Assembly (NCBI GenBank): GCA_043755815.1
Contig: JAYUSF010000224.1
Span: 8,924-72,923, forward strand
Length of the DNA: 64,000 nucleotides
Direction of reading: 5' to 3'
From: Verrucomicrobiota bacterium
GTDB taxonomy: Bacteria > Verrucomicrobiota > Verrucomicrobiia > Limisphaerales > UBA9464
The translations under genes were made by a program, and so were the position numbers. The notes below the pieces were generated by a model. The model did not search any database. It was given only the letters and a program-made list of their open reading frames with translations, and was not told where the DNA came from. Shown here in pieces: positions 4,312 to 24,021 of the stretch (its first letter is position 1; the number at the start of each line of letters is the position of its first letter).

Positions 4312-5865
4312 TCACTCGGCGTCGCTCTTGCCGGTGAAGGCGGCGAGCAGTTCGATGATTCGGTCCGTTTCGCCCGCGGCCGTCGCCCCGTTCCGGACCG
4401 GCACATAGCCGTTCACCAGGATGCTGAAGGCCACCGTCTCGCCCCCCAGTGTGTCCACGTAACCCGAAAGGCCGGCTACGTGCCGCAACGAACCGGTCTT
4501 GGCGCGGACCCGTCCCTTCAGCTCGGGCGCCGTAAAACGGCGCTGCAGGGTGCCGTCGACCCCGCCGACCGGGAGCGCATCCAGCCACGCGGCGTGGGCC
4601 GGATGACGGTGCATGTGGAGGAGCAACTGCACGACGGCACCGGGCGTCGCCAGGTTCTTGCGTGACAAGCCGGAGCCTTCCTCAAAGACCACTTCGTGCG
4701 CGGCAATGCCAACCTTGGCGAGCAAGGTTCGGAGCGCGCGAAGGCCGGCAGCTTCTGTCGTTTCGGCCAGCGGCAGACCGATCTCCTTGCCGACCGGCGA
4801 CCGTTCGGTCTCGACGCCCGCCAGTTGCCAGAGCGACTGGGCGTAAAAATTCTGCGACGGCTTCATCATGGCGCGAACGACCTCCGCCAGCTTTGGCGAC
4901 GGCACGGCGGCGAGCTGCTGCCACTCGCCCGAAACTCGCGGGTGTTCGGCGCGTTCCCGCCAGTCCACTTCCCGGACGCCGCCGGTCACCGTCACCCCGG
5001 CATGCTGGAGCGCGAGGCGGAGCAGTTCTCCAAAATACCGGGCTGGTGCGGGGACCGTGACCTCCTCGGTTTGCACGCCGCCGCCCAGCGGCACGAGGCC
5101 GCGCACCGTCACCCGCGACTCACCGGGCAGGCGCTCGACCTTCAGGTCGGCCGGGGCGTTGCCCGGTCCGGTGCTGATCTGCCCGGCCAATTCCACCAGC
5201 CGGTTCAGCGGTTCCAGCCTCAACGTCGCCGCCGCTCCCACCGTGGCGCCCGGCGTCACGCGCAGGTGCAAGACGTTGTCATTGGCGGAAAGGGCCGGGG
5301 AGGCCGCTCCGTAGTAGTAGCCAAGGTCGTCCCAATTCCAACCGCTGCCGTAGGGCGGACCGCGAAACAGGCTGGTGTCGCAAACCAGATCGCCACCGAT
5401 GCGGCGGATGCCAGCATTGGTCACGGCGGCGACAAACGGCGCAAAGGCCGCCTCCCAAATGCCGTTGTTCAGCCGGTCCGAGATCGTCGGATCGCCCCCG
5501 CCCACGACCAGAAGGTCACCCATGACGGCCTCGCCCTTCGTTCCGGCCGGCACCCAGAGACCCGTGATCAGCCGCCGATTCGGGTCCAATCGGTCCAAGG
5601 CGAGGGCGGCGGTGAACAGCTTGGCGGTCGATGCCGGCACGAACAGACCTGCGGCGTTCGTCTCAAAAAGGGTGCGGCCGGTCTGCACCGAAACCGCCTT
5701 CACGCCCCACCGGGCACCGGGCGCGGCGGTGGTGGCGAGCACCCGCCGGAGCTGTAGCTGCAAGTCTGCCCGCGAAGCCGGCCTGGTCTTTTCAGCCAAC
5801 CCCTGGCGTGATAGAACCGAGCTCAGCCAGACGAGCAGGAGAAGAAAACTCCGAAGCCATCGCAT
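4312..5865 (-). CDS. dacB: D-alanyl-D-alanine carboxypeptidase/endopeptidase (PBP4, peptidase S13)
   Basis: SxxK (PASTAKLFT), SxN (SGLSRKN) and KTG (AKTGSL) motifs in the correct order. Signal peptide MRWLRSFLLLLVWLSSVLS starts at ATG 5865 (the track start at 5883 is TTG). Confidence 0.88.
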   Translation of the reverse strand: MRWLRSFLLLLVWLSSVLSRQGLAEKTRPASRADLQLQLRRVLATTAAPGARWGVKAVSVQTGRTLFETNAAGLFVPASTAKLFTAALALDRLDPNRRLITGLWVPAGTKGEAVMGDLLVVGGGDPTISDRLNNGIWEAAFAPFVAAVTNAGIRRIGGDLVCDTSLFRGPPYGSGWNWDDLGYYYGAASPALSANDNVLHLRVTPGATVGAAATLRLEPLNRLVELAGQISTGPGNAPADLKVERLPGESRVTVRGLVPLGGGVQTEEVTVPAPARYFGELLRLALQHAGVTVTGGVREVDWRERAEHPRVSGEWQQLAAVPSPKLAEVVRAMMKPSQNFYAQSLWQLAGVETERSPVGKEIGLPLAETTEAAGLRALRTLLAKVGIAAHEVVFEEGSGLSRKNLATPGAVVQLLLHMHRHPAHAAWLDALPVGGVDGTLQRRFTAPELKGRVRAKTGSLRHVAGLSGYVDTLGGETVAFSILVNGYVPVRNGATAAGETDRIIELLAAFTGKSDAE

Positions 5866-5945
5866 GGGGAAACATTTTGCCAAATGCGCCGGAGTGGCTA
5901 CATCGTTTTGGTGTGGAGGGGCTGCATTTTCCTGACCGGCACATT

Positions 5946-7338: not shown

Positions 7339-7713
7339 TCAATCCTTCAGCCAGGTGACGAACCGGAACGGGTCCGCGTGCCAGAGCGCGAGCACGAGAA
7401 TCCAGCCGGCCGCAAAGAGGGCGAGGTGGACGACGTGAAACCGCCAGCCGCCCCGGGTCGCGCGGAAGCAGAGCAGGCCAAGCCCGATGACCGGCGCCAC
7501 AAAGGTGCTGGTCGCAAACAGCCAGAGCGCGACGAGTTGGTGAGCCTTCAGCGCCACCGTCGAATAGTCCTCCAACATCGGCTTGGGCCAGTGACCGAAT
7601 CCCAGGCGGACGTGCAACATCAAGGTCACGAAGGCGAGCAACAGCGACGGTGACGTCGCGGCGCAGAGCCACGAGGGCCAGGCGATCCGGGGACGCTGGG
7701 CAATGGGATTCAT
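7339..7713 (-). CDS. small polytopic membrane protein (hypothetical, about 4 TM)
   Basis: Hydrophobic spans SLLLAFVTLMLHV, LVALWLFATSTFVAPVIGLGLL and VVHLALFAAGWILVLAL. ATG 7713 overlaps the stop of the upstream gene (ATGA), implying translational coupling. Confidence 0.6.
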   Translation of the reverse strand: MNPIAQRPRIAWPSWLCAATSPSLLLAFVTLMLHVRLGFGHWPKPMLEDYSTVALKAHQLVALWLFATSTFVAPVIGLGLLCFRATRGGWRFHVVHLALFAAGWILVLALWHADPFRFVTWLKD

Positions 7714-10352
7714 TGGCGACGGGAGCCAAGAGATTTTCTCGCCATGATCCAGACGGCAAAGGCACCAACCCCAAACAGCGCCCACGTTTCCGGTTCAGGA
7801 ACGATCGATGGCGTTGTCAGCGGGTCTACTGGCGTAAGGCCGGCCTGCGAGAACTGTGCCTTCGTTTCGAGCACCACGGCACCGCTAACCGGGGTTACGA
7901 GCTGCCACCGGCCGGCCAATTCCACCGCTTCGGCAACCTTTCGCTCGCGTCGGAGCCGCTCGATTTGGTCCAGCGCCCAGAGGCGGACGAGGTGCCGTGA
8001 TGCCTTGGGTGCGGAGCCGGGATCATTCCCAGTGCGCTCACGCTGCCACGCGAGGCGGGGAGCCGTGCCGTTGCGTTCACGCAGCAGCCGGACCAGATCG
8101 TCCGTCAGCGAACCGAGCCGAGGCACGGTGGCGTAACCGGCCACGGTGGCGAATTCCTTGGCCGCGCGGTTCGCTCCGCGGGTGGCCTGAAAATCCAGCA
8201 ACTGCGTGCCGTTGCCGCCGGTCCTTTCCAGACGCTGGGTGATGGCGTGGAAATCGCCCAGCAGCACGGGCTGTGGTCCATGAACCCACAGCACCGTGCC
8301 GCCGGGACGTTCGGCGGCCCAGTTCCACGCCGCCTCCAAGGCCGGCACCGGATCGTGCCCACCGGCGAACGAAGGCGCACGCCGCGCCAATCGATCCGCG
8401 ACGTCGACGAAGGAGCCGTCTTCAATTTTGGCCCCCTCAATCACGCCGTCGTGGGCGATCCAGATTCCTACGTCGCCCTGACCGCCGGCTTGCTTGAACG
8501 CCCCACGAACCGCGTCGAACCAAGCGCGTCCACCGCGGCCGCCGTCCAGCACGAGCGCGAGGCGGCCCGGAGTCTTTTCAGTGGTGGCGCCGAGCTGTTG
8601 GCGAACCCAGGCAGGCGTCGGCGCTCGCTCATCGCGCACCCACGCGCTGGCCGCGGCCGCACTCCGGCGCAGGTGAATCACCGGAAAGGCGTCCGCCACC
8701 TCGCGCTCGTTGACCGCGGCGTGCAGGGCGTTGGACCGGCTGGCGTCGAGGCTCCAGCCTGTGGGAGTGCTTACCGCCGGCTGTGGCGTTTCCAACCACG
8801 CATGATGCCGTAATTCCTCGCGGATGGCGAAGTTGCGTTCCGCGAAACGCAGCCAGACGAAGGCAACTTCATTCATCGCCAACGGCGCGAGCGGCGCGGT
8901 GATGCCAAGGCGGACCTTCATCGTGCCGCCCTGCGCCGGAACCGGGAAACACTGCATCAACACGCGGTCGGGGCCGGACGTGGTGACCAGAATCGGGTCA
9001 CGCCGCTGCACGACGGCGACCTGTTGATACGCGGCCCGCACCTCGCCGCGTCCGGCAAAGGCGGCTTCGCGTTCTTCGCCATCCACCCAGAGCGTGACGC
9101 GCGACACCGCACCGCCGGGCGGCAACTGAATCTCGGCCCGGGCTTCGCGCGGTTGACGTTCGTGATCGTTACGGAACTCGAGTGTCCATTCGGTATAGCT
9201 CCAGCCGTCGTCGGCATTGCCCATTGCGTCTAGCCGCGACGACAGCAGGGAGAGGCCCGAGACATGCCCGGCCACGGATTCACCGCCGACGGCGCTGTCC
9301 CACTCAAAGTCCCGGAGCACTTCGCGGCCGGCGCCCCGCAGCGGGCTGAGCGGCGGGCGCACGGCGTTGAAGGGCTGCCCGGTCACCCGGAAGTAGACTT
9401 CCTGCACCTGGGCCGCGGACAGCCATGGGCGGGAAAAGAATTCGTCCCAGACCTGGCGCGACTGCCCATAACAAGCCCGGAGCAACGCTTGGTCGTTGCC
9501 ATAAGCCCGCAGCCGCTGGATGGCCTGGGTCTTCCCAGCGTCCGAGCCGCTAACAGCCGTGTGGAGCCACTCCCGGGTCAGCGCATCCGGCAATGCAAGG
9601 GCAACCAGCAACAGCAGGCTCCCGGCCCAACCCCACCAGCGCAACCGGGGCGGCGCTGTCCCGGTAGCGGTCGCGCGTTTCCGCAGCGTCGCCCCGAGGA
9701 TCAGACCACAGATCCAGGCTGACAGCGGAGCCAGCGGCAGAAGTCCGATCCCGAAATAGACGATTCCCACAAACGCGAAGGGCGTGAAGGGCAGAAACAG
9801 CAAGGCGTAGGCGCCGGCCACGCCCAAAGCGGCGGATTGCAGCCACCAAAGCCAGCTCGGGGCGGCGCGAGGTGTGCGCCCCAGCCAGAGCAGTCCCACC
9901 GCATGCACCGCCGGCACCAAGGCGATCAGCAGGGCATGAACCGGAGTCGGCACGGGATCCATCAGGCCGGCGGCACACGCTTTGGACATCAGTTCGAAGA
10001 TCAGCGTGCCCACGGGTAGCAACACCCCGAAGAACCAGAGCAGAACCCGCCCCGCCGAGGAGAAGGCGGTCGGACGAGCAGTCGGCAGTTCCGGGATTGG
10101 TCGGACCGATTCGCCGGGCTGCCCTTCGGACGCCGGTTCCGCCAGGAGGTCCGGGTCCACCTTCGCGAGGATGCGGCGCACGTCCGCTTCGGTCACCACG
10201 GGGAGCCCCTGTGCCGCCGCCTCATTCTCCAGGTGCTGCCGCAGGTCGCCGATGACTTCGTCAGCCTCGGCGCCGGCGGCGGCAAAACGGGCCCGGTGGC
10301 GGTTGAGGTGCCCTTCGAGGACGGCACGGGCGCTGGGTGTCCATTCGTTCAT
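7710..10352 (-). CDS. multidomain membrane protein: DUF1700/HAAS-like N-terminal head, polytopic TM region, VIT-like and degenerate vWA-like ectodomain, PEP-CTERM sorting signal
   Basis: The N-terminus MNEWTPSARAVLEGHLNRHRARF...IGDLRQHLENE...VTEADVRRILAKV is followed by about 5 hydrophobic spans. VIT-like EWTLEFRNDHERQPREARAEIQLPPGGAVSRVTLWVDGEEREAAF. C-terminus VPEPETWALFGVGAFAVWIMARKSLGSRRQ. ATGA overlap with PadR upstream. Confidence 0.75.
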   Translation of the reverse strand: MNEWTPSARAVLEGHLNRHRARFAAAGAEADEVIGDLRQHLENEAAAQGLPVVTEADVRRILAKVDPDLLAEPASEGQPGESVRPIPELPTARPTAFSSAGRVLLWFFGVLLPVGTLIFELMSKACAAGLMDPVPTPVHALLIALVPAVHAVGLLWLGRTPRAAPSWLWWLQSAALGVAGAYALLFLPFTPFAFVGIVYFGIGLLPLAPLSAWICGLILGATLRKRATATGTAPPRLRWWGWAGSLLLLVALALPDALTREWLHTAVSGSDAGKTQAIQRLRAYGNDQALLRACYGQSRQVWDEFFSRPWLSAAQVQEVYFRVTGQPFNAVRPPLSPLRGAGREVLRDFEWDSAVGGESVAGHVSGLSLLSSRLDAMGNADDGWSYTEWTLEFRNDHERQPREARAEIQLPPGGAVSRVTLWVDGEEREAAFAGRGEVRAAYQQVAVVQRRDPILVTTSGPDRVLMQCFPVPAQGGTMKVRLGITAPLAPLAMNEVAFVWLRFAERNFAIREELRHHAWLETPQPAVSTPTGWSLDASRSNALHAAVNEREVADAFPVIHLRRSAAAASAWVRDERAPTPAWVRQQLGATTEKTPGRLALVLDGGRGGRAWFDAVRGAFKQAGGQGDVGIWIAHDGVIEGAKIEDGSFVDVADRLARRAPSFAGGHDPVPALEAAWNWAAERPGGTVLWVHGPQPVLLGDFHAITQRLERTGGNGTQLLDFQATRGANRAAKEFATVAGYATVPRLGSLTDDLVRLLRERNGTAPRLAWQRERTGNDPGSAPKASRHLVRLWALDQIERLRRERKVAEAVELAGRWQLVTPVSGAVVLETKAQFSQAGLTPVDPLTTPSIVPEPETWALFGVGAFAVWIMARKSLGSRRQ
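7713..7802 (-). other. PEP-CTERM sorting signal (exosortase recognition) of the 880-aa protein
   Basis: VPEP motif, then hydrophobic helix ETWALFGVGAFAVWIMA, then basic tail RKSLGSRRQ at the extreme C-terminus. Confidence 0.85.
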
Positions 10353-10687
10353 GGTTTGCCTCCGACCTGTGCGGTGCTGCGGTTCAGGGTTTCGAGAAAC
10401 GTGTTCATCGTCTTCAAGGTCCGGCGCCCCTCGGGCGTCAGGCTGTAGTATTTGCGGGCGGGACCGGTGGCGGACTCTTCAAGGCGGGTGTTGACCAGGC
10501 CGGAAAGGCGCAGGCGCGACAGCAGCGGGTAGAGCGTTCCTTCGGTGAGCCCCATGCCAGGGACTTCCGACAGCTCCTTGACCAGCTCATAGCCGTAACG
10601 CTCCCGGGTTGCGAGCGTGCGCAGGATGCACAGTTCGATGACCCCCTTGCGGACCTGCACGACCCAGTTGTCGAAGAAATCTGACAC
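10349..10687 (-). CDS. PadR family transcriptional regulator
   Basis: wHTH core LCILRTLATRERYGYELVKELSEVPGMGLTEGTLYPLLSRLRLSGLV...KYYSLTPEG. GTG at 10687 gives a typical ~112-aa PadR; the longer track ORF has an implausible Pro/Arg-rich extension. Confidence 0.88.
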   Translation of the reverse strand: MSDFFDNWVVQVRKGVIELCILRTLATRERYGYELVKELSEVPGMGLTEGTLYPLLSRLRLSGLVNTRLEESATGPARKYYSLTPEGRRTLKTMNTFLETLNRSTAQVGGKP

Positions 10688-11013
10688 AGGCTTGGGCGTG
10701 GTTGCTAGGCGGCCTCCGGCCGGGCGCGGATGGCCCGGCCGCCGACATTTGGAAACAGGACTGACTTCATGAATGGGCCTGGCTGACGGAACGTTTGGCC
10801 CCGGCGGAGGGCGAACGAACGAAAGGAACCGCCGCGGATTCACCCGCTTCGAACTGACTACTATGTGACACAAGGTAGCTTGTCGTGCAAGCGATCAGTT
10901 GGCCAGACTGCCGTCAGGGCGGCGGGTTCAAATTAACCGCGGTCAAAGTGGGCGATCCAACCCGGCGAGCCGGGGTTGGACTTCGGGGGGCGGGCGGCCA
11001 TACTCCGCGGCCA

Positions 11014-11931
11014 GTGCACTATCCGGTCACCGAGCTGACGCAGGCCCTCTTGGCGTCGTTTCGCCGTCACGGGGGGATCAACCACCTCGACGGCGCGAAT
11101 CTGCCCGCCAAGGCGGCGGTGGCCGAGATCACCCAGGATTTGCTCCGGTTGATCTTCCCCGGCTTTTTCGACGACCGCATCGTCCATTCGTCCGAACTGC
11201 AGGCGGAAACCGCCCTGCGGCTCGACTCGATTGCCGGCCGGCTGGAAGACGAAATCTACAAGAGCCTGCGCTGCGCCGGAGGATGTTCGGACGGCGAACG
11301 CGATCCGCGCCGGATCGCCCACACGGTGACTACCGAGTTCCTGCGCCAGTTGCCGGCCGTGAGGGAGCTGTTGCAGACCGATGTCGAAGCGGCGTTTCAG
11401 GGCGACCCGGCGGCCTTGAGCCGGGACGAGGTGATCGTGGCCTATCCGTTCATCGAGGCGATCTCGGTGCACCGGCTCGCGCACGAACTCTTTCTTCGAA
11501 AGATCCCGCTGCTCCCGCGCATCATGAGCGAGTGGGCCCACGCGCGCACGGGCATGGACATCCATCCGGGAGCCCGGATCGGCACCCATTTCTTCGTGGA
11601 CCACTGCACGGGCACGGTGATCGGCGAGACGGTCATCATCGGGAACCATGTGAAGCTTTACCAAGGCGTCGGCCTGGTGGCGCGCTCGCTGGCCGCCGGC
11701 CAGGCGTTACGGGGACAGAAGCGGCATCCCACCCTGGAGGACGGAGTCACGATCTACGCCAACGCGACGATCGTGGGCGGGGACACCGTGATCGGGGCCG
11801 GCAGCACAATCGGCGCGAGCGTGTTCCTCATGCACGGCGTGCCGCCGCACAGCCTCGTGCTGATGGATGACGTGAAGCTCAAGGTCGTGCCCAAGGCCGA
11901 CCGGAACCAGGTCATCGACTTCCAAATCTGA
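11014..11931 (+). CDS. cysE: serine O-acetyltransferase family protein (hexapeptide-repeat, long form)
   Basis: DPAALSRDEVIVAYPFIEAISVHRLAHEL...TGMDIHPGARIGTHFFVDHCTGTVIGETVIIGNHVKLYQGVGL. The start is uncertain (GTG 11014 preferred, GTG 10885 possible). Confidence 0.8.
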   Translation: MHYPVTELTQALLASFRRHGGINHLDGANLPAKAAVAEITQDLLRLIFPGFFDDRIVHSSELQAETALRLDSIAGRLEDEIYKSLRCAGGCSDGERDPRRIAHTVTTEFLRQLPAVRELLQTDVEAAFQGDPAALSRDEVIVAYPFIEAISVHRLAHELFLRKIPLLPRIMSEWAHARTGMDIHPGARIGTHFFVDHCTGTVIGETVIIGNHVKLYQGVGLVARSLAAGQALRGQKRHPTLEDGVTIYANATIVGGDTVIGAGSTIGASVFLMHGVPPHSLVLMDDVKLKVVPKADRNQVIDFQI

Positions 11932-12449
11932 TGCTGCTGCGCGACGCCAAGCCGGGCGATGCCGAGATCATCGCCGAGTTCAACGCCCGCCTCGCGCAGG
12001 AAACGGAGGGACGCAGTCTGGACCGCACCGTCCTCGTTGCCGGCGTCCGGGCCCTGCTGGCCGACCCGGCCAAGGGCCGCTACTTCGTGGCCGAGCAGGC
12101 CGGCCTCGTCATCGGACAGGTGATGGTCACCTACGAATGGAGTGACTGGCGCAACGGGATGTTCTGGTGGCTGCAAAGCGTCTACGTCGTCGACGACGCC
12201 CGCGGCCAGGGGATTTTCCGCGCCCTGTTTGAGCACGTGGAACGGCTGGCCGGTCAGGAATCCGGCGTGTGCGGAATCCGGCTTTACGTGGAGCGGGAGA
12301 ACGAACGGGCGAAGGGCGCCTACCTGCGGCTGGGCATGATGAACGCCGGCTACGAGGTGTTCGAGTCCGTGTTCGCCGCGCCGGCACCCGGCGCGATGCC
12401 GGACGACGAACGGGAGATTCCTTACCGAAGCGCTGCAATCGGATCATGA
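11931..12449 (+). CDS. GNAT family N-acetyltransferase
   Basis: 172 aa. Acetyl-CoA-binding-type block VYVVDDARGQGIFRALFEHVERLA. The ATG overlaps the cysE-like stop (ATCTGATG). Confidence 0.8.
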   Translation: MLLRDAKPGDAEIIAEFNARLAQETEGRSLDRTVLVAGVRALLADPAKGRYFVAEQAGLVIGQVMVTYEWSDWRNGMFWWLQSVYVVDDARGQGIFRALFEHVERLAGQESGVCGIRLYVERENERAKGAYLRLGMMNAGYEVFESVFAAPAPGAMPDDEREIPYRSAAIGS

Positions 12450-13393
12450 ACAACCTGCGACAATTCATGGGCAGTCTGCCTCACAAGGGCTGGCTGGGAG
12501 TCCTGCTGGTGAGCTGGGTGGCGCTGTTCCATCTGCTCGGCAATTCGAGCTTTGGTTACGTGAACACCGAATCCGCCTTCGTCTGGCTTTACCGTTGGTA
12601 TCAGTTGCCGACGATCGGGGAGTCCGGCGACGAGCTCTGCCCGCTGGTGCCAGCCGTGGTGGGCGTGTTGCTCTACCTCCGCCGGGCACAGATCCAGGCG
12701 GCGGTGAAGCAGCCGTGGTTTCCAGGAGTGTTCCTGCTGACGCTGGGACTGGCCTTGCATGTGTTTGGCTACCTCGCCCAGCAGGTCCGGCTCTCCCTGG
12801 TGGGTTTCATCATCGGCAGCGGCGGACTGATCGCCGGGCTCTGGGGGCGGGAGCTGCTGAAAGTGGTCGCCGGCCCGATCCTCTTCCTGATCTTTGCCAT
12901 CCCGATGGCGGCCTACACGGACGGGCTCACCTTTCACCTGCGGCTGATCGTCACCAAGCTGGCGGTCGGGGTTTGCCAGACCTTGCTGGCCATGCCCATC
13001 GAGCAGGCGGGCACGACGGTCAGCCGGCTGCCGACCGCCCTCTCGGCCGGGTTCAAATTTGACGTCGCACCGGCTTGCAGCGGGATCCGCAGCATGCTGG
13101 CCGTGCTGTTCGTCACCACGGTGTTTGTGCATCTCAACCGGCGGCGGTGGTGGCACAGCCTGCTCCTGCTGGCGGCCGCCACTCCGCTCGCGCTGGTCGG
13201 CAACACGATCCGGTTGGTGTTCGTCTTTTTGATGGGAGACGCGTTGGGCGAGGAGGTGGGCAAGGCGGTGGAGACCAAGTTCGGCTTCATCACCTACGCC
13301 GCGGCCCTGATCGGGATTCTCGTGATTGACCGGCTCATCCTGCGACGGAGACCACCCGCCACCGCCGCCGAAGGAACGCCCGCCACCGCATGA
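12446..13393 (+). CDS. exosortase (EpsH/Xrt family), stand-alone form
   Basis: Polytopic. Catalytic-Cys block FDVAPACSGIRSM and Arg block LVGNTIRLV. Start MNNLRQFMGSL at ATG 12446 overlaps the GNAT stop (ATGA). Confidence 0.88.
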   Translation: MNNLRQFMGSLPHKGWLGVLLVSWVALFHLLGNSSFGYVNTESAFVWLYRWYQLPTIGESGDELCPLVPAVVGVLLYLRRAQIQAAVKQPWFPGVFLLTLGLALHVFGYLAQQVRLSLVGFIIGSGGLIAGLWGRELLKVVAGPILFLIFAIPMAAYTDGLTFHLRLIVTKLAVGVCQTLLAMPIEQAGTTVSRLPTALSAGFKFDVAPACSGIRSMLAVLFVTTVFVHLNRRRWWHSLLLLAAATPLALVGNTIRLVFVFLMGDALGEEVGKAVETKFGFITYAAALIGILVIDRLILRRRPPATAAEGTPATA

Positions 13394-14151
13394 ACCGAAA
13401 CGCCTTACGGGTCGCTGTCCTTTCGTTGGCCCTGATCGGGGCCGGTTTTGCGCTGTTGAACCGGCTTCGCAGCCATCAGGCCCTGGGCCGGCCGGCGGTG
13501 GTTGTGGTGCCAGGAGTGCTGGCGCCAACGACCAACAATGCCGTGCGAACCAACGCAGTGGTGATGCCCGAACGCCTGGCCGGATTCGACAGCGTGCCGG
13601 GTGAAATCACCGCGATGGAACTGGACTTCCTGCCTCCCGACACCTCGTTCGGGCGTCGCATCTACCAGGCCGCCGAAGGCAATCTCTATGTGCAGGCCAA
13701 CGTGGTCCTGATGGGCAGCGACCGCACCAGCATCCACCAGCCGGACTTCTGCCTCACTGGCGTCGGTTGGAACATCCAGCGAAAACGCGCCGCTGAAATC
13801 ACCCTGGAAACAACTCTCCGGCGCAACCTGACGGTGAGCCGCTACGACGCCAGCAAGCTGGTGCGGCTCCCGGACGGGCGCGTGGTCCAGGCCGCCGGCA
13901 TCTATGTCTTCTGGTTCGTCGCCGACGGAGTGGAAACCGCCAACGTCTGGCACCGGACGCTGGCCACGATGCAAAGCGTGCTGCTCAAGAACACGCTCCC
14001 GCGGTGGGGATATCTCTCCTTCTTCGCCCAGTGCCCGCCCGGGCAGGAGGACGTGACCTTCGACCGGATGGCCCGGCTGATCGCCGCCTATGCGCCGCAG
14101 GTGATGCGCCAGCCCGATCCCGCTTCCACCGCGGCCGTCCAGACCCGATAG
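13390..14151 (+). CDS. exosortase-associated EpsI family protein (DUF3485-like)
   Basis: N-terminal anchor LRVAVLSLALIGAGFALL. Signature GSDRTSIHQPDFCLTGVGW. ATGA overlap with the preceding exosortase. Confidence 0.85.
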   Translation: MNRNALRVAVLSLALIGAGFALLNRLRSHQALGRPAVVVVPGVLAPTTNNAVRTNAVVMPERLAGFDSVPGEITAMELDFLPPDTSFGRRIYQAAEGNLYVQANVVLMGSDRTSIHQPDFCLTGVGWNIQRKRAAEITLETTLRRNLTVSRYDASKLVRLPDGRVVQAAGIYVFWFVADGVETANVWHRTLATMQSVLLKNTLPRWGYLSFFAQCPPGQEDVTFDRMARLIAAYAPQVMRQPDPASTAAVQTR

Positions 14152-14152
14152 G

Positions 14153-15823
14153 ATGAACTCCCGCTTCCCCAATTGGCCGGTGCTCGCGGCCCTGCTGACC
14201 GCTTGGACCGCCCTGTTTCATTTCCAGGGAAATTCCTCCTTCGGATACATCGACACGCGGTCGCTGTTCGTCTGGCTGAACGCCCTCTATGGCGCCAACT
14301 CCGACGACGCCCTGGGCTGGGTGGTCGTGCCCCTGATCGCTCTCCTCATCTGGACGCGGCGTGATGAATTCGCGCGCGTGCCCAAGCAGCCGTCACTGCT
14401 CCCGCTGGGCCTGTTCACGCTGGCCGCCATCTTCCATCTCGCCGGCTCCCTGCTGCAACAGGCCCGGCTGTCGGTGGTCGGTTTCGGCCTGGGACTCTAT
14501 GCCCTGACGGGCCTCGTTTGGGGCACCGCCTGGTTGCGTGCCGCCGCCTTTCCGTTTTCCCTGCTGGCATTCTGCATCCCGCTGACCGCCTACACGGACG
14601 GACTGACGCTGCCCCTGCGGCTGATCGCCACCCGGCTCTCCACGGACTTCTGCAATGGCATCCTGGGGCTCCACCTGATCCGGGAGGGCACACTGGTCTT
14701 TGATACGCTGCCCTCCGGCCAGAAGGGATTCGAGTTCGACGTGGCTCCCGCCTGTTCCGGCATCCGCAGCCTGACCGTGGTGCTCCTGCTCACGTTGACC
14801 TTCGGCTACCTGCAGTTGGACCGCTGGTGGCGCCGGGGCGTCTTGCTGCTTTCCGCCATCCCGCTCGCCGTGCTCGGCAACGTGGCGCGTCTGGTCACGG
14901 TCTTCGCGGTCGGTTCCCGTTATGGTCAGGAGGCCGGCGCCCGGATCGAGACGAATCTGGGCTTTGTGACCCTGCTGGTGGCGCTCGGGGGAGTGATGCT
15001 GATCTCCCGGTGGCTGAGCGATCCCATCACGGAGGCGGCGCCACCGGCGCCCGAACCCCTTCGGGTAAAGCCGGCATCCTTGGGCGTCTGTCTCGCTGCG
15101 GTGGCGCTCGTTTTCGGGTTGATTGCCTGGGGCGGCAGCGCGCTCGCCGCCCGGCAACGGTTGGGCGCTCCCGGGGTGCGGCTGAGCCGGATGCCCCTCT
15201 TCGGGGAAGACGGAGGCATCGCCCGGACCAATTCGGTTTACCTGCCGACGATGGTGCCCGGATACACTTTCGAGAGCGGCAAGATCAGTCCGACCGAACT
15301 GCATTCGTTGCCGGCCGACACCACGTTTGGCCGGGCCATCTACACCGGCAGCGATGGGTTCACGGCCCAGGCCACCGCCGTGCTGATGGGGGGCGATCGC
15401 ACCAGCATCCATCGTCCCGAATACTGCCTGACCGGTCAGGGCTGGCGCATCCGTTCCAAGCAGGAGGTTACGCTGGCCAACCCGGACGGTTCCAGCTCTG
15501 GCCGCACCGTTCAGCGTTTCGATGGCGGCATGGTCAGTTCACTGGAAGGTCGGCGCCAGGAGTTGGCGGGCGTTTACGTCTTTTGGTTTGTTGCCGACGG
15601 CCAGCGCTCAGCCAGCCACTGGGAGCGCCAGTGGTGGATGATCCGGGACCTCGTCACCAAAGGGGTGCTCCAGCGTTGGGCTTACATTTCTTTCTTTGCT
15701 CCGTGCCCGCCGGGACGGGAAGACGAAGCCTTCCGCCGGGTCGCCCAACTGATCGGCGAAATCGCTCCGGCCATTGAGGTCTCCAAGGGTGCCCTTGCCG
15801 GCGGTCAGACCTTCCGGCCCTAA
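14153..15823 (+). CDS. exosortase fused to a C-terminal EpsI domain (paralog of 12446-14151)
   Basis: The N-terminal half parallels the first exosortase (FHFQGNSSFGYIDT, FDVAPACSGIRSL, LGNVARLV). The C-terminal half parallels EpsI (GGDRTSIHRPEYCLTGQGW, VYVFWFVADG, WAYISFFAPCPPGREDEAF). Confidence 0.88.
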   Translation: MNSRFPNWPVLAALLTAWTALFHFQGNSSFGYIDTRSLFVWLNALYGANSDDALGWVVVPLIALLIWTRRDEFARVPKQPSLLPLGLFTLAAIFHLAGSLLQQARLSVVGFGLGLYALTGLVWGTAWLRAAAFPFSLLAFCIPLTAYTDGLTLPLRLIATRLSTDFCNGILGLHLIREGTLVFDTLPSGQKGFEFDVAPACSGIRSLTVVLLLTLTFGYLQLDRWWRRGVLLLSAIPLAVLGNVARLVTVFAVGSRYGQEAGARIETNLGFVTLLVALGGVMLISRWLSDPITEAAPPAPEPLRVKPASLGVCLAAVALVFGLIAWGGSALAARQRLGAPGVRLSRMPLFGEDGGIARTNSVYLPTMVPGYTFESGKISPTELHSLPADTTFGRAIYTGSDGFTAQATAVLMGGDRTSIHRPEYCLTGQGWRIRSKQEVTLANPDGSSSGRTVQRFDGGMVSSLEGRRQELAGVYVFWFVADGQRSASHWERQWWMIRDLVTKGVLQRWAYISFFAPCPPGREDEAFRRVAQLIGEIAPAIEVSKGALAGGQTFRP

Positions 15824-16025
15824 CCGCAGTCCTAAACTGAATGTCCATCCAAGCCCGCAAACCCCACCGACCCAACCGAGCGGGGCGACGCGGAAACTTC
15901 AGCCCTTGCAGATGAACTGCACATTCTCGAATTCGGTTCAGGCCGACCGGCCGAGTCTTCACAGCCGGGCTGCGGTTTTCTCGCTTAACAGCTCCCGGCC
16001 AGCCGCCTAAGACTTCCAACACACG

Positions 16026-17435
16026 ATGCTCAGCCGCCAGCGGCAACTCCTGACGAAACTGCACAAGCTGCTCGACGCAGCCTTGTTCGCCGCGGCGTTC
16101 TGGCTGGCCCACGCCATCCGTTCTATCGACTTCCTGGACCCCAACCACCTGATCCGGGAATTCGATGCCTATGCCTGGCTGCTGATCGTCATTGTCGTGC
16201 TCACGCCGCCGGTGCTGGAGCTGAACCGCTTTTACAACCGCTCGGTCTTCTCGTCGCGCCGCGACACGCTGTTCCAGCTGATCCGCTCCGGCATCTGGAT
16301 CTCGCTCATCGTCATCACGGTTCTGTTCTTCCGCAAAGACGAGAGCGCGCGCGGCGTCATGGTGCTTTTCACCCCGCTCGCCGCGACGCTGTGCTTCGCC
16401 AAGGAGGAACTGGTCCGCCGCTGGACCGTGGCCCGCTTCGGCAACAAGGCTTCCCGCCGCCGGGTGATCCTGCTCGGCGCCGGGGGGAACGGCAAACCGG
16501 GTGACGACACCGTCAAGCTTGAGAAGTCCGTTGCCGCCGGCTCCCACGGGGAAGTCGAGATCATCGCCCGGCTCGACATCAACGAACTGTCACCCAACCA
16601 ACTGGCGGAAACGCTTCACGAAACTTCGGCCAATGCCGTCATCATCTCGCCGCGACAGGCGTTGTTCGGCACGATTGAGCAGGCCATCCAGATCTGCGAA
16701 CTTGAGGGTGTTGACGTCTGGCTGCTCGCGGATTTTTTTCAGACCCGCCTCTCCCGGGCGAGCGCCGACGAACTCAACGGCCTCCCGGTGCTCGTCTTTC
16801 GGACCGGCCCCGACGCCTCCTGGCAGGCCCTGGCCAAGTCAGGCATCGACTTCTTCGGGGCTGCGACCCTGCTCCTGGGCGTCGTGCTCCTGGTCCCGAT
16901 CATTCCCATCGCCGCCCTGCTGATCCGGCTGAGCTCGCCCGGCCCCGTGTTCTTCCGGCAACAGCGCGCCGGCCTCAACGGCCAGCCGTTCACCATGCTG
17001 AAGTTCCGGACGATGGTGACCAACGCCGAACAGTTGAAGCAGGAGCTCGCCGCCCTCAACGAGATGTCGGGCCCCGTCTTCAAGGTCACCAACGATCCGC
17101 GCATCACCCCGCTCGGTCGCTTCCTCCGCAAATGGAGCATCGACGAGCTGCCCCAGCTCTTCAACGTGCTCCGCGGCGAGATGAGCCTCGTCGGCCCCCG
17201 CCCGCTGCCCGTGGACGAGGTCCGCCGCTTCGACGACCCCGCGCACCGGCGCCGGCTCAGCGTGAAGCCCGGCCTTACGTGCCTCTGGCAGGTGAGCGGC
17301 CGCAACAACGTCAAGGATTTCAAGGAATGGGTCCGCCTCGACCTCGAATACATCGACAACTGGTCGCTCTGGCTCGACGTAAAGATTTTGGTCCGGACCG
17401 TCCCCGCCGTCTTCGCCGGAACCGGCGCCAAGTGA
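16026..17435 (+). CDS. polyprenyl glycosylphosphotransferase (bacterial sugar transferase, EPS-priming enzyme)
   Basis: N-terminal TM segments, then [25 protein letters not shown] and [21 protein letters not shown]. Confidence 0.9.
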
Positions 17436-17496
17436 CGTCCGGATCAATCCGGTGCCGATCGGCACTCCAGTTTTCGCGCCCTCAACCACCTTCCTT

Positions 17497-18489
17497 ATGC
17501 CCACGAAACCCACCCGTCGCCCCCCCGCCAAACCCATCGTTCAACCCGTCTCCGTCGTCACCGGCGGCGCTGGTTTTCTTGGCTCGCACCTCACGGACCT
17601 GCTCCTGTCGAAAGGGCACAAGGTGGTCATCATCGACAACCTGATCACCGGCTCGACCGACAACCTCGCGCACCTCGCCGGCCACGCGGACCTGAAGTTC
17701 ATCAAGCAGGACGTCACGGAGTTTCTCTACCTTGCCGGGCCGGTGGACTACGTCTGGCACTTCGCCTCGCCGGCCAGCCCGATTGACTACCTCGAACTCC
17801 CGATCCAGACGCTGAAGGTCGGTTCCTTGGGCACGCACAAGGCGCTCGGACTCGCCAAGGCCAAGGGCGCCCGCTTCCTGATCACCTCAACTTCCGAGAT
17901 TTACGGCGACCCGCTCGTGCATCCGCAGCGCGAAGACTACTGGGGCAATGTGAACACCATCGGGCCGCGCGGCTGTTACGATGAGTCCAAGCGGTTCGCC
18001 GAAGCGCTCGTGATGGCTTACCACCGCGAGCATGCCATCCCCACGCGCATGGTCCGCATCTTCAATACCTACGGCCCCCGCATGCGCCTCCATGACGGTC
18101 GCGTGGTCCCTGCCTTCATCAGCCAGGCACTGACAAACAAGCCGATCACGATCTTCGGCGACGGCAAACAGACGCGTTCCTTCTGCTACGTCAGCGACCT
18201 GATCGCCGGCATCTATCGCCTGATGATGAGCGAAGGAAAGGATGCCCACCTGCCGACCAACATCGGCAACCCGCACGAACTGACCATGCTTCAGTTCGCC
18301 CAGGAGATCATCAAGGCCACCGGCTCGAAGTCGAAGATCGTCCACAAGCCCCTGCCCCAGGACGACCCCAAGCAACGCCAACCCGACATCACCCGCGCCC
18401 GCAAGACGCTCGGCTGGGAGCCCAAGGTGCAATTGGCTGAGGGCCTGACCGGGACCATCGATTATTTCCGCGGGCGGTTGGGCCGGTGA
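17497..18489 (+). CDS. UDP-glucuronate decarboxylase (UDP-xylose synthase), SDR family
   Basis: [13 protein letters not shown] Rossmann motif, [11 protein letters not shown] catalytic YxxxK, and [11 protein letters not shown] typical of UXS. ATG 17497 is preferred over the track start. Confidence 0.85.
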
Positions 18490-18938: not shown

Positions 18939-20195
18939 ATGGTCCCCTTGGCCCTCATCGGCGAAAGCATCCTGATCGCCATCGGCATCCTCGGGCTGGC
19001 GTTCTTCTTCCTGTGGCGCATGGCCAAGGGCGGCGGCAATGACGGCGGACTGCTTTCCCTGCCGGCCAAACTCCTCCTGACCGCCGTGCTGCTCGCGACG
19101 CTCGGCTACATGTTCCACCAGGGACGCGGCGGCAACCGGGGCGGGGCGGCGATCGCCCTGTTCACGGTCCTGCTGGTCGCCTTTCCGCTCGTGGTCATGT
19201 GGCTGCCCCAAGTCATCGAAACCGTGCTCAGCCCGTTCTTCGGTTCACTGACCGGCGGCAACGAACAGGTCGAAGCTAGGCCGATGTATTTCCGCGCCGT
19301 CGGCCTGCGTAAGCGGGGCGAATACTCCGCCGCCATCGAGGCCGCCGAGGCCGAACTCGCGCGCTTCCCCGACGATCTCGATGGGCTGCTCCTGATGGCC
19401 GACATTCGCAGCGTTGACCTGCGGGATCCGGCCGGGGCGTTGGGCCTGCTGGAACTTGCCGTGCTTGAGCCCAAACGCGCGCCGGCCAGCGTGGCGCTCC
19501 TGCTCAGCCACATCGCCGACCTGCAGGTGAACAAGCTCAACAACCCCGATGCCGCACGGGGCTCCCTGCGCCGGATTGTAACCGAGTTTCCCGGCACCGA
19601 TGCCGCCGTGTTGGCGCAGCAGCGCCTGGCGCACCTTCCTGGCGAGCAGCAACTGCTCGAACGCTTCGACCGCCCCAAGCTCATCGTCCACCACCACCCG
19701 GGTAACCTCGGCCTCGACTCCACGGCCATTCCCGCGAACTCCGACTCGGAAACCGCCCTGCAACGCGCCGGCGAACTGGTCCGCCATCTCACCGAATTCC
19801 CCGACGACTGGGAACGGCGCGAGGAATTGGCCCGACTCTACGTCGATCCTCTGGGCCGATCCGAGATGGCGACGGCGGAGATGGAACATCTCATCCAGCA
19901 TCCCGACGCGCAGTCCCGCCACATCGCCCGCTGGCTCAACGAAATGGCCGACCTCCAGCTCAAGGCTCCGGACGGAGTCGATGCGGCCAAACTCACCTTG
20001 GAACGCCTCACGACCCGGTTCCCCAACACCCCGTGGGCGGAGCAGGCCGCCGCCCGCATCCGCCTGCTCGGCCTCGACCGTCGCGGCAAGGAGGCGACCC
20101 GCACCCTCCGGTTGGGCACCTACGAGCAGAACATCGGGCTGAAGCGCGGTGACCCGACCATCCCCGATCCGGCCAAGGGAACGAACCCCGAGTAG
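18939..20195 (+). CDS. membrane-anchored TPR repeat protein
   Basis: N-terminal TM spans (LALIGESILIAIGILGLAFFFLW, LLLTAVLLATLGYMF, AIALFTVLLVAFPLVVMW), then TPR-like helices (YFRAVGLRKRGEYSAAIEAAEAELARFPDD...). Confidence 0.65.
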   Translation: MVPLALIGESILIAIGILGLAFFFLWRMAKGGGNDGGLLSLPAKLLLTAVLLATLGYMFHQGRGGNRGGAAIALFTVLLVAFPLVVMWLPQVIETVLSPFFGSLTGGNEQVEARPMYFRAVGLRKRGEYSAAIEAAEAELARFPDDLDGLLLMADIRSVDLRDPAGALGLLELAVLEPKRAPASVALLLSHIADLQVNKLNNPDAARGSLRRIVTEFPGTDAAVLAQQRLAHLPGEQQLLERFDRPKLIVHHHPGNLGLDSTAIPANSDSETALQRAGELVRHLTEFPDDWERREELARLYVDPLGRSEMATAEMEHLIQHPDAQSRHIARWLNEMADLQLKAPDGVDAAKLTLERLTTRFPNTPWAEQAAARIRLLGLDRRGKEATRTLRLGTYEQNIGLKRGDPTIPDPAKGTNPE

Positions 20196-20367
20196 ATGCA
20201 GACACAGCCTTCTCCGTCGTTCGAATCGTAGCGGCCGGCTTGCCGTTAAAACACGCCACGTAGAGTGAAGGTTTGTTGCCGGCACTGGCCGTAACCACAT
20301 CGGCAGGCGACCCGCCACTGGCAACGCAGAGCCCCCGTCCCTCTTCGCCTGAAGTTCCGGGGCAGGC

Positions 20368-21567
20368 TCAGTTTGGGAATTTTTCCTGACCGACCCTTCG
20401 GAGATGGGCAGCGCGCAACAATTCGATCGCACGAACGACGAGCTTTGAATCCATCTCGTGAACTTCCACTCCGATTCCAAGGTCGCGGAGCAGGGTGATC
20501 GTCAACTCGCCTCCCAGATGTTCACGGAATTCTTCGAGTCCGGCCGTGATGATGAGCTGTCCCGCCGCATCTACCCGGACAAGTTCCTCGGCGAACAGGT
20601 CGAAACCAAACCGCTCCAACAGCCGGAGCACCCGCCCGGCCGGGACCGGGGGCAACAATCGGGAGAGTTGCGCGACGTTCACATCGAGGGCTATGCCAAT
20701 GGCGACTGCCTCTCCGTGGCTGATTCGATAAGCGGAGAGCTGCTCGATCTTGTGTGCCGCCCAATGTCCGAAATCAAGCGGGCGAGCGCTCCCCATCTCA
20801 AAGGGATCACCACCGAATGCGATGTGATCAAGGTGCAGTTCGGCACTCCGGAAGATCAGATGTTTCGTCGGCTCCGTCGCGAAGGCCGCCAAGGCTTCCG
20901 CATTCAGCTCAATCCAGTCAAAGAAGGCGCGGTCACGAATGCAGGACACCTTGATGGCCTCCACAAATCCCGCCCGCTTGTCCCGCGGAGAAAGCGTGTC
21001 GAGCAGGGAGAAGTCGTTGATGACGGCAAACGGCGGGGCGAAGGTGCCGACGAAGTTCTTTTTCCCGAAGGCGTTGATGCCGTTTTTTACGCCCACTCCG
21101 GAATCCCCCTGTGCCAGCGTGGTCGTGGGAATCCGGATGAGGCGAACCCCCCGGTGAGCCGTCGCCGCCGCCAGCCCGGTCATGTCGAGCAGCGCGCCCC
21201 CGCCCACCGCAACCAGATAACTGTGTCGGTCAATGCGGTATCGGTTGATCAGCGCATGAACCGCAGTGACCTGGGCAAGGTCATTCTTAACCGCTTCACC
21301 GCCCATGACGAGCACGGGCGGACAGGCCAGTTCCAGGTGGATCGAATGCGCGGAAAAATAGTCGCGGATGGAATCCACCAAGGAGCCATGCGCCTTTGCG
21401 AGCGCCTCATCAACGATCACCAGCACCTTGGCGCGACGGCCCGTCACCGCTCCACCGGATGCGGTTAGCACGTCACGGAGGACACAATTGTCCGAACCGA
21501 AGACGCGGTCAGTGAAGTGGACCTGCTGCCGCCAATGCACACTAATGGTGCGCTCGATCGTCGCCAT
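20368..21567 (-). CDS. 3-dehydroquinate synthase family protein (AroB-like sugar-phosphate cyclase)
   Basis: VAVGGGALLDMTGLAAATAHRG, RIPTTTLAQGDSGVGVKNGIN, FVEAIKV and HGEAVAIG metal-ligand-type blocks. Whether it is a true AroB or another cyclase cannot be decided by eye. Confidence 0.75.
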   Translation of the reverse strand: MATIERTISVHWRQQVHFTDRVFGSDNCVLRDVLTASGGAVTGRRAKVLVIVDEALAKAHGSLVDSIRDYFSAHSIHLELACPPVLVMGGEAVKNDLAQVTAVHALINRYRIDRHSYLVAVGGGALLDMTGLAAATAHRGVRLIRIPTTTLAQGDSGVGVKNGINAFGKKNFVGTFAPPFAVINDFSLLDTLSPRDKRAGFVEAIKVSCIRDRAFFDWIELNAEALAAFATEPTKHLIFRSAELHLDHIAFGGDPFEMGSARPLDFGHWAAHKIEQLSAYRISHGEAVAIGIALDVNVAQLSRLLPPVPAGRVLRLLERFGFDLFAEELVRVDAAGQLIITAGLEEFREHLGGELTITLLRDLGIGVEVHEMDSKLVVRAIELLRAAHLRRVGQEKFPN

Positions 21568-21848
21568 CGGTGTTATGTTAATGTTGGAACTGCGACCGCC
21601 AAACCGGAACCTGCCGAGGTGAGGGGCGATGCTTCCAGATGCCCAATGGATTTCGAAGCGAAACCTCTGAGTTTTTCGCCCAAAATGCGGACCCGGAAAG
21701 TCGGCTTCGCGAGTAACGTGGTCGGAAGCGAGTCGCAGTTCGGTGGCACTCCTGCCGGCGGCGGCCCGGCCGCCTTCGTCGGTTGAACGTAACCGACCGT
21801 TAGCGGACTCCCGGCATTCAGGCCCGCCGCCGGTGAGTTCACCCCGCT

Positions 21849-22496: not shown

Positions 22497-22550
22497 CGGG
22501 AAACGGTAAAGATAACCGCTTCATCCGCCAATCGCTCGTTACCGGCACCG

Positions 22551-22595
22551 CCAACGAGAAAACGGCGGAGTCCGAAGACTCCGCCGTTTTTGGAG
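22551..22595 (-). terminator. rho-independent (bidirectional-looking) terminator downstream of rplS
   Basis: Minus-strand reading: AAAACGGCGGAGTC-TTCG-GACTCCGCCGTTTT-CTCGTT, about 20 nt after the rplS stop. Confidence 0.7.
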
Positions 22596-22611
22596 ACAAA
22601 TCCGGGGCGGA

Positions 22612-22983
22612 CTACTTGCCCGTAAATTCGCGCTCTTGAACCGCCATCGCGCCCTTGCCGAGACGCTTGCGGAGGTAGGTCAGCTTGGCCCGGCGAACTT
22701 TGCCGTGGCGTTCAATTTCGACCCTGTCGACCCGCGGCGAATGGAAGGGGAAAATGCGCTCCACCCCTTCGCCGTAGCTGATCCGGCGAACGGTGAAGGT
22801 CTTGTTCAAGGCATGCCCGCGCATGCCGATCACCAAGCCCGCAAAGACCTGAACCCGTTCCTTGTCCCCTTCGACGACCTTGGTGTGGACCTTCACCGAG
22901 TCACCGACGTTGAACTTGAGCGGCTCCTTCCGGAATTGCTCGCCCTCAATCTTGTCAAACAGTGCACCTTTGTTCAGCTTCAT
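22612..22983 (-). CDS. rplS: 50S ribosomal protein L19
   Basis: [33 protein letters not shown]...[29 protein letters not shown]. Confidence 0.95.
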
Positions 22984-23018
22984 ATTAATTCCTCAGTAAA
23001 TTGTCACTTTTTCGACCG

Positions 23019-23720: not shown

Positions 23721-23762
23721 CGGCAAAACACGCGGTCCTGTTCACCCGCGCGGGCCGTCCGT

Positions 23763-23996: not shown

Positions 23997-24021
23997 GGTC
24001 TGTTGGCGCGATGCGCTGAAA

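Follow-up and report, generated by a model that had tools for sequence, protein, structure and literature searches.

A three-gene operon in a 64,000-nucleotide (nt) stretch of a Verrucomicrobiota genome (contig JAYUSF010000224.1, positions 8,924 to 72,923; the whole stretch is called the window here) probably encodes a transmembrane signaling cassette built on the substrate of a dedicated exosortase. In this cassette, which is basically of two genes and here of three, a repressor of the PadR family would be tethered by a membrane protein that is both sensor and sorting cargo. The wiring of a sorting substrate to a transcription factor is supported independently by two kinds of related loci, those in which the same core carries a zf-HC2 anti-sigma head and is linked to an extracytoplasmic function (ECF) sigma factor and those in which PadR, a HAAS-headed substrate, and an exosortase are encoded in one operon.

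The three genes lie on the minus strand. The first (10349 to 10687) has a GTG start codon and encodes a 112-aa PadR-family winged-helix repressor (Pfam PadR, E = 5.1e-21). The second (7710 to 10352) encodes an 880-aa sensor/cargo protein composed of a HAAS head, five transmembrane (TM) helices, juxtamembrane helices, a VIT domain, a vWA-like domain, a C-terminal helical region, and a PEP-CTERM signal. The third (7339 to 7713) encodes a 124-aa accessory membrane protein. A preliminary description of this DNA had proposed that the three open reading frames (ORFs) are chained through ATGA stop/start overlaps, and we could read both overlaps in the sequence, at 10349 to 10352 between padR and the gene for the 880-aa protein and at 7710 to 7713 between the latter and the gene for the 124-aa protein. 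Gene calls in a second, independent assembly of the same organism were identical (112, 880, and 124 aa).

For each homologue of the sensor gene, we then compared the flanking DNA only, using two collections. The genome set consisted of 80 loci, nearly all from Verrucomicrobiota metagenome-assembled genomes, some of whose taxonomy labels appear unreliable; 72 of these loci had upstream DNA. The metagenome sample, which was independent of the genome set, consisted of 75 nonredundant loci, and its head classes were assigned with custom-built hidden Markov models and a regular expression. In about 70 of the 72 genome loci, padR immediately preceded the sensor gene, L051 and L067 being the exceptions. 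The two genes shared the same 4-nt overlap in 52 of the 72 loci and were separated by no more than 15 nt in almost all of the others. Because this overlap recurs so often, the pairing is not a matter of chance. Among the metagenome loci, padR lay upstream of all 33 HAAS-headed genes and of none of the 27 headless ones. Besides padR, there were no broadly conserved neighbors around the sensor gene, and a tblastn search of plasmids gave no match.

To describe the 880-aa protein, we aligned 43 homologues that were 41 to 79% identical to it and built an AlphaFold2 model on this alignment. Conservation ran the full length of the alignment, and the model had a mean pLDDT (predicted local distance difference test) score of 88.3 and a pTM (predicted template modeling) score of 0.78. 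From the N terminus, the model lays out the head, a disordered linker (residues 76 to 98), five TM helices, a helical juxtamembrane part, a beta sandwich, an alpha/beta domain, a helical C-terminal part, and a final TM helix. The five TM helices (residues 99 to 123, 137 to 159, 166 to 200, 204 to 230, and 239 to 268 in the secondary structure of the model; nt 9549 to 10058, minus strand) correspond to the roughly five hydrophobic spans recognized in the preliminary description. Averaged over the 43 homologues, loops 1 and 3 contained 0.5 and 0.0 lysines plus arginines, respectively, whereas loops 2 and 4 contained 1.2 and 4.0. This bias toward loops 2 and 4, together with the basic C-terminal tail, therefore indicates that the N terminus is in, the ectodomain out, and the C terminus in. 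Thus, by the positive-inside rule and the odd number of TM helices, the VIT/vWA part is predicted to lie outside the cytoplasm and both termini inside.

The predicted periplasmic part begins with a VIT beta-sandwich domain (residues 367 to 521; nt 8790 to 9254, minus strand), recognized both by the beta strands of the model and by Pfam VIT (PF08487), which matched residues 382 to 482 above its cutoff (E = 1.2e-8; 35.5 versus 26.5 bits), as had been anticipated from the sequence. A segment of the TIGR04477 profile also matched this domain (E = 1.4e-19). It is followed by a vWA-like domain (residues 598 to 775; nt 8028 to 8561, minus strand), which shows the alternating strands and helices of an alpha/beta fold in the AlphaFold2 model. 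In a Foldseek search with the full model, the best PDB match was ITIH1 (6FPY; E = 7.6e-17, about 600 aligned columns), and vWA proteins such as PTMP1 (E = 1.4e-4) came lower in the list. The degenerate vWA-like region that had been proposed is thus borne out as a fold in the structure model, but no match to Pfam VWA was found anywhere in the 880-aa protein. The metal ion-dependent adhesion site (MIDAS) motif, DxSxS...T...D, is not conserved, and the site instead reads D603-G-G-R-G, H666-D667, and H691. Asp603 is kept, both serines of DxSxS are glycine in the window clade, His or Gln at position 666 and Asp667 stand at the threonine position, and an invariant His691 replaces the final aspartate. 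Within this domain (nt about 8280 to 8545), D603, G664-G665, H/Q666, D667, W689, and H691 are near-invariant, a set that may represent a different metal or ligand site.

The last 30 residues form a PEP-CTERM sorting signal (residues 851 to 880; nt 7713 to 7802, minus strand) with the expected three parts at the extreme C terminus: VPEP at residues 851 to 854, a TM helix at residues 854 to 878, and a basic tail, RKSLGSRRQ. Pfam PF07589 matched residues 851 to 873, scoring 20.4 bits with the full protein against a cutoff of 20.7 and 23.2 bits with a C-terminal fragment, and TIGR02595 scored 16.9 against a cutoff of 16. P852, E853, and P854 were invariant in all 43 sequences, Gly863 and the basic tail were conserved across homologues, and the tail contained 3.4 lysines plus arginines on average, so the signal proposed in the preliminary description is confirmed. 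PEP-CTERM substrates have been described as having an N-terminal signal peptide (PMC3237569); the 880-aa protein lacks one and has instead the 70-residue soluble helical head and five TM helices. Polytopic PEP-CTERM families are nevertheless present in NCBIfam (TIGR02921, TIGR04477, and TIGR04286). The window encodes a second PEP-CTERM protein, a 389-aa ORF at 36861 to 38030 (minus strand) that ends in VPEPATWALF...RRSKGQPR and scores 21.2 bits with PF07589, above the cutoff; it is the only other match to the C-terminal PEP-motif pattern within the 64 kb.

The N-terminal head (residues 1 to 70; nt 10143 to 10352, minus strand) is predicted to be cytoplasmic. Two AlphaFold2 models gave three helices in it, at about residues 6 to 26, 30 to 47, and 55 to 65, and a break at Asp66-Pro67. 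As published, a HAAS domain has three helices with a kink in helix 3 at a GxP motif, lies N-terminal to TM segments, and has an obligatory stand-alone PadR neighbor (PMC11237479). The head appears to fit this definition except that Asp takes the place of Gly in the window clade: of the 43 aligned sequences, 20 have Gly and 19 have Asp at position 66, Pro67 is present in 38, and the window protein reads V-D-P. Residues E32, D36, H40, E44, T54, and D57 are invariant in the same alignment. Of 27 heads from the family, 19 matched Pfam HAAS (PF22564) at an E value of 1 or less, the best at 3.3e-8, and two more divergent members of the core family, P0189 and P0250, exceeded the HAAS cutoff with 28.8 and 27.8 bits. 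When the profile of window-type heads was aligned by hhalign with a head that passes the cutoff, the match covered 60 columns (probability, 88%; E = 3e-6). Together, these comparisons support the identification of the head as a HAAS domain at the level of the family. The likeness to DUF1700/HAAS noted previously therefore holds in part, for HAAS at family level and for a perfect co-occurrence with PadR, but Pfam DUF1700 (PF08006) was never matched by the heads, which hit only PF22564.

To place the protein in a wider family, we defined its core as 5TM-VIT-vWA-PEP-CTERM and searched 1.84 billion representative proteins with a profile of it. The core family comprised at least 1684 clusters at 50% identity (E ≤ 1e-30). 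The best 150 of the 1684 clusters fell into three groups: HAAS-headed members of about 880 aa, headless members of 780 to 830 aa that begin at TM1, and members with other heads. Named homologues among the matches listed were annotated only as "hypothetical," "VIT domain," or "PEP-CTERM" proteins. Among the other heads is that of P0186 (locus L094), which matched the zf-HC2 anti-sigma family with 39.2 bits (cutoff, 22.2) and is encoded in an operon with the order ECF sigma, zf-HC2-VIT-PEP, exosortase. An ECF sigma gene was likewise upstream in the single zf-HC2 locus of the metagenome sample (1 of 1). P0163 (L089) has an unclassified 60-aa head and an ECF sigma gene upstream, a link made by adjacency alone, and P0252 has a SHOCT-like head that scored 23 bits, below the cutoff. 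The heads of P0163, P0175, and P0180 matched no Pfam family. One core thus seems to have acquired either a HAAS head together with PadR or a zf-HC2 head together with an ECF sigma factor, and to have done so more than once, as judged from these sequences.

The headless members revealed the exosortase that goes with this core. No adjacent regulator was found at any of the 27 headless metagenome loci, but a dedicated exosortase gene lay directly downstream in 22 of 24, often with a 4-nt overlap at the junction. Among HAAS-type metagenome loci, a dedicated exosortase was downstream in 4 of 28. The exosortases of two headless loci (L088 and L093) and of the ECF-sigma-linked locus L089 were 40 to 43% identical to one another and unlike those of the window. 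The L093 enzyme was closest to XrtQ (171 bits versus a cutoff of 270), and the XrtQ-like subfamily included the exosortases of L088, L093, L094, L095, and L097 and of about 20 further metagenome loci. An EpsI-like gene followed the dedicated exosortase gene in 21 loci. The XrtQ-like exosortase, a subsequent EpsI-like protein of about 170 aa (fused to the exosortase in L088), and the VIT-PEP-CTERM protein thus make up a three-gene cassette. Operons combining PadR, a HAAS-VIT-PEP protein, and an exosortase were found at L095, L058, L103, and L171/L173.

The 124-aa protein does not belong to that exosortase cassette. We considered this role and rejected it, because homologues of the protein in the metagenome sample were found solely in HAAS-type loci and it is the EpsI-like gene that follows the exosortase gene. 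The protein belongs to no known family, has the motifs HxRLxLGxWP and, at the C terminus, DPxxFxxWxxD, and contains three hydrophobic spans rather than the four TM helices previously assigned to it. Homologues on the same strand were present in 19 of the 80 genome loci (L029, L030, L047, L050, L073, and others), where they were placed after the sensor gene or else before padR.

We next looked for a binding site through which PadR might regulate the cassette. A 21-bp palindrome, CTACCTTGTGTCACATAGTAG, at 10858 to 10878 (unstranded) is a putative PadR operator. It differs at two positions from the consensus CTACCTTG-N5-CAAGGTAG, in which the spacer is always 5 nt and which marks the padR promoter in most related loci. 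The consensus palindrome occurred 52 times in 1.39 Mb of loci versus 3 times in shuffled sequence, typically once per locus and nearly always no more than about 1 kb upstream of padR; the metagenome loci gave the same picture. It was also present upstream of padR in operons that include a dedicated exosortase gene (L103, L171/L173, and L058). Allowing up to 3 mismatches, a search of the 64-kb window returned 2 sites, against 0.07 expected. The second site, at 4710 to 4730 (3 mismatches), lies inside a Peptidase_S13 (D-Ala-D-Ala carboxypeptidase) ORF at 4312 to 5883 (minus strand), and we discarded it as probably due to chance. At many loci a TTGACA-N17-TACTAT promoter and the palindrome overlap, the arrangement expected of an autorepressor, and in the window a −35-like TTGCAC (10885 to 10890) adjoins the operator. 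A TTTGAAC box at 10926 to 10932, about 45 nt upstream of the operator, was invariant in the window and four relatives and might act as an additional control element at the padR promoter.

The operator of the window lies 171 nt from the padR start codon. Between them is a GC-rich 5′ leader of 170 nt (10688 to 10857, minus strand) that is lineage specific: in the closest relatives (L001, L002, L003, and L014) the leader is about 23 nt, making that of the window about 145 nt longer in the alignment. The 170-nt sequence is not repeated elsewhere in the window or the loci, its predicted minimum free energy is −59 kcal/mol (a value with no shuffled control), and a long hairpin is predicted around 10700 to 10745. 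Either a regulatory role particular to this lineage or a mere insertion could account for it. In one clade (L006 to L010, L023, L026, and L085), a small lipoprotein-like gene stands between the operator and padR as an extra first gene of the operon; the product, 117 aa long in the L085 gene call, has a signal peptide and contains a ..VCGC motif.

On the other side of the operator, a divergent exosortase/exopolysaccharide (xrt/EPS) operon (10885 to 18489, plus strand) forms the context of the cassette in the window but is not part of the conserved module. It encodes a serine acetyltransferase/EpsC-like protein (starting at 10885, 10948, or 11014 and ending at 11931), a GNAT acetyltransferase (11931 to 12449), an exosortase (about 12446 to 13393; Exosortase_EpsH, Pfam E = 6e-35), EpsI (13390 to 14151), an exosortase-EpsI fusion (14153 to 15823; Exosortase_EpsH, Pfam E = 2e-35), a priming sugar transferase (16026 to 17435), and an NAD-dependent epimerase/dehydratase (17452 to 18489), all on the plus strand. 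Profile matches thus bear out the divergent operon with two exosortases and EPS enzymes that had been described, and the genome of the sensor does encode exosortases of its own, the two Exosortase_EpsH genes in the window. The spacer of 326 bp given for the intergenic region holds if the acetyltransferase starts at the GTG at 11014, but GTG codons at 10885 and 10948 are also in frame, so that the spacer is 197 to 326 bp and the operator 7 to 136 nt from the acetyltransferase start. The invariance of the TTTGAAC box in relatives that have no acetyltransferase gene argues for a start codon no earlier than 10948.

The adjacency of the two operons was found only in the window genome and in L002 (72% identity), and the xrt/EPS operon was not adjacent in L001, L003, and L014 (66 to 73% identity) or in about 77 further loci. 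Conserved synteny with both PadR and exosortase genes, which had been expected, therefore holds for PadR across the relatives but for the xrt/EPS neighbors only in L002, and the adjacency to an XrtA-like/EPS operon is best seen as lineage specific, recent, and local. We also considered and rejected the two window exosortases as the dedicated type of the sensor family: they are XrtA-like, unlike the XrtQ-like partners. With the XrtN model they scored 28.9 and 23.4 bits, against a cutoff of 200. A search of the 64-kb window found no XrtQ-like exosortase gene, the best matches (E = 4e-4) being the two XrtA-like genes. Farther along the window, the region from 20000 to 34000 has a G+C content of 0.58 to 0.62, compared with about 0.65 elsewhere, and few ORFs were called there by a crude filter on codon-position G+C, which failed to call padR and the sensor gene, too. 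The segment may be of foreign origin or may simply differ in composition.

We propose the following mechanism. PadR dimers would repress their own operon at the palindrome, and PadR would be bound at the membrane by the HAAS head. The five-helix bundle would relay the state of the outer part of the sensor and so change the level of free PadR. That state might be the binding of a ligand or of matrix by the VIT and vWA-like domains or, most attractively, the cutting off of the C-terminal anchor helix and the attachment of the protein by an exosortase. The 124-aa membrane protein would be an accessory partner in the HAAS branch only. In the window genome PadR might also act on the xrt/EPS operon, because the operator lies in the shared spacer.

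Several observations weigh against this proposal. The window head itself scored only 16.0 to 17.4 bits with Pfam HAAS (E = 0.006 to 0.016), under the cutoff of 27 bits, and has Asp where the glycine of GxP sits. Eleven of the 27 family heads also matched Pfam PCP_red weakly, and a Foldseek search of PDB with the isolated head gave nothing significant, the best match being a PCP_red domain at an E value of 0.11. DUF1048 (2O3L) was absent from the top 50 matches of that search; a small three-helix fold is not diagnostic. A sigma-70 promoter scan of the window spacer found no canonical promoter, and we infer one there because relatives have TTGACA-N17-TACTAT over the palindrome. No dedicated exosortase gene was found near 24 of the 28 HAAS-type metagenome loci or near 79 of the 80 genome loci, that of the window included, and the tie to sorting may therefore have become looser in the HAAS branch. 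Finally, within 10 kb the operator was confined to the promoter of the cassette itself in about 50 loci, and the known output is therefore autoregulation only.

This last finding suits another explanation, that the 880-aa protein is an effector in the envelope or matrix, a VIT/vWA adhesin or tether that an exosortase merely localizes. PadR and HAAS would then form only a homeostatic dosage loop, in which more protein titrates more repressor, and PadR would not control the xrt/EPS operon. The otherwise unrelated neighboring genes agree with such a role, as do the headless relatives, which function without a regulator, and the Listeria regulator LltR, which is chiefly self-regulating (PMC6624303). 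What argues against it is that one core has recruited two heads that bind transcription factors, HAAS and zf-HC2, and such recruitment is a hallmark of sensors rather than of passive effectors. Extracytoplasmic events are what anti-sigma factors normally report. Since anti-sigma heads sit on modules that report such events, the exchange of heads is the strongest argument for the core being a sensor, and we regard a pure effector with a dosage loop as rather unlikely.

If the cassette does signal, the exosortase could itself be a signaling protease: removal of the PEP-CTERM helix and attachment of the VIT/vWA part to an acceptor in the envelope or exopolysaccharide would free or capture PadR or the ECF sigma factor. 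The operons in which the regulator controls an exosortase together with its only substrate speak for cleavage as the signal, but we hold this specific form of the model to be unlikely. The version put forward in the preliminary description, in which the neighboring XrtA-like exosortases cleave the anchor, PadR is released or captured, and the xrt/EPS operon (about 11014 to 18489) comes under feedback control, appears more improbable still. It draws on the single strong operator in the 64 kb, which sits in the shared spacer, on the invariant VPEP motif, on the PadR-controlled operons elsewhere that include an exosortase gene, and on the retention of the arrangement in L002. However, the adjacency is missing from the other three close relatives and the roughly 77 further loci, the window exosortases are not of the dedicated type of the family, and the promoter/operator block is kept in relatives without xrt/EPS genes, for which reason it belongs to the PadR side. 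Least credible of all, and by a long way, is that the PEP-CTERM-like tail is an unprocessed sixth membrane anchor and the protein a HAAS-type sensor of the ordinary sort, whose large periplasmic domain binds a ligand. The subthreshold Pfam score of the full protein (20.4 versus 20.7 bits) and the scarcity of exosortase genes near most HAAS-type loci would fit a plain anchor. Such an anchor would have no need of the (near-)invariant V-P-E-P, the conserved Gly863, and the basic tail seen in the 43 sequences. Moreover, a dedicated exosortase gene comes next in 22 of 24 headless loci, whose proteins have the same tail, and NCBIfam already contains polytopic PEP-CTERM families.

The tethering of PadR by a sensor that is also sorting cargo has counterparts in several known systems. 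HAAS/PadR-like winged helix-turn-helix dyads have been described and proposed as an alternative to two-component signaling (Ravi et al. 2024, mSystems, PMC11237479), and the LltR-Lmo0600 pair of Listeria is an autoregulated operon of a PadR gene and a gene for a DUF1700 protein, in which LltR mainly regulates its own operon (PMC6624303). The window operon shares with these dyads a short stand-alone PadR directly upstream and a head before the TM helices that is predicted to be cytoplasmic, N-terminal, and made of three helices. Published fusion partners of HAAS are PspC, LiaI-LiaF-TM, Toastrack, FtsX/MacB, FtsW/RodA, VanZ, and unnamed modules of 2 to 6 TM helices (PMC11237479); no VIT, vWA, or PEP-CTERM partner is in that list, whereas the sensor module in the window is a sorting substrate.

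With TIGR04477, the VIT protein of the XrtN system, and TIGR04286, the MSEP-CTERM target of XrtK, the protein shares a TM region, a VIT domain, a C-terminal region, and the combination of a polytopic N terminus with a C-terminal exosortase signal, and the headless members of the core family, like those targets, are paired one to one with an adjacent exosortase. However, the window protein falls far under both cutoffs (111.4 versus 250 bits for TIGR04477 and 43.7 versus 150 bits for TIGR04286), has VPEP rather than the MSEP of TIGR04286, and has no adjacent XrtN. The partner exosortase of the core family is XrtQ-like, not XrtN or XrtK, and the HAAS head has no counterpart in either profile. Bacterial VIT/vWA proteins with GlyGly-CTERM, LPXTG, or PEP-CTERM tails are known (Haft and Varghese 2011, PMC3237569), one of the PEP-CTERM kind being from Verrucomicrobium spinosum, and they have in common with the window protein a VIT and vWA ectodomain and a C-terminal tripartite sorting signal. 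The ten families listed for the window protein did not include TIGR03788, the target of the marine proteobacterial sortase.

Eukaryotic inter-alpha-inhibitor (ITI) heavy chains offer a more distant comparison through ITIH1, the best structural match, which has the VIT, vWA, and C-terminal helical parts in common with the window protein. The two are only 10 to 11% identical, the MIDAS is not conserved in the window protein, and ITIH1 is secreted, with neither a membrane domain nor a regulator, whereas the window protein is membrane bound and linked to PadR. ITI heavy chains shed a C-terminal propeptide, and the new C terminus becomes ester linked to a glycosaminoglycan. By analogy, this loss of a propeptide is a suggestive parallel to the cleavage of a sorting signal followed by attachment. 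ECF sigma/zf-HC2 (ZAS-type) pairs, finally, also consist of a transcription factor cotranscribed with a membrane protein that has a cytoplasmic N-terminal binder and an outer sensing part. The window protein differs from them in having HAAS rather than zf-HC2, a repressor rather than a sigma factor as its partner, and an anchor of five helices plus a putatively removable sixth, where single-pass anti-sigma factors undergo regulated intramembrane proteolysis. No relevant paper emerged from literature searches that paired PEP-CTERM with PadR or exosortase with either VIT or anti-sigma, in agreement with the earlier statement that no described case was known of sorting cargo fused to a PadR-partner head. 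The 880-aa protein is best assigned to a new branch of the dedicated-exosortase-target superfamily, one that is very large, coupled to regulators, and apparently undescribed.

Exosortases and their PEP-CTERM substrates occur widely among environmental bacteria. To our knowledge, the action of exosortases on their substrates and the target of attachment have been worked out only in small part, and in the literature the exosortase is still termed a "proposed" sorting enzyme. If a substrate is indeed tied to a transcription factor, exosortase action would become measurable by a promoter fusion, which would be its first simple genetic readout. HAAS-PadR dyads would gain a new kind of sensor module, and the cassettes of a dedicated sorting enzyme and a VIT/vWA target that are catalogued in NCBIfam would come in regulator-coupled forms, with PadR/HAAS or with ECF sigma/zf-HC2. 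Strong comparative evidence that the core reports on the cell envelope comes from its having captured different regulator-binding heads repeatedly. Should the exosortase prove to be the signaling protease, it would define a new transmembrane signaling route, through which the cell monitors the state of protein sorting or of the matrix.

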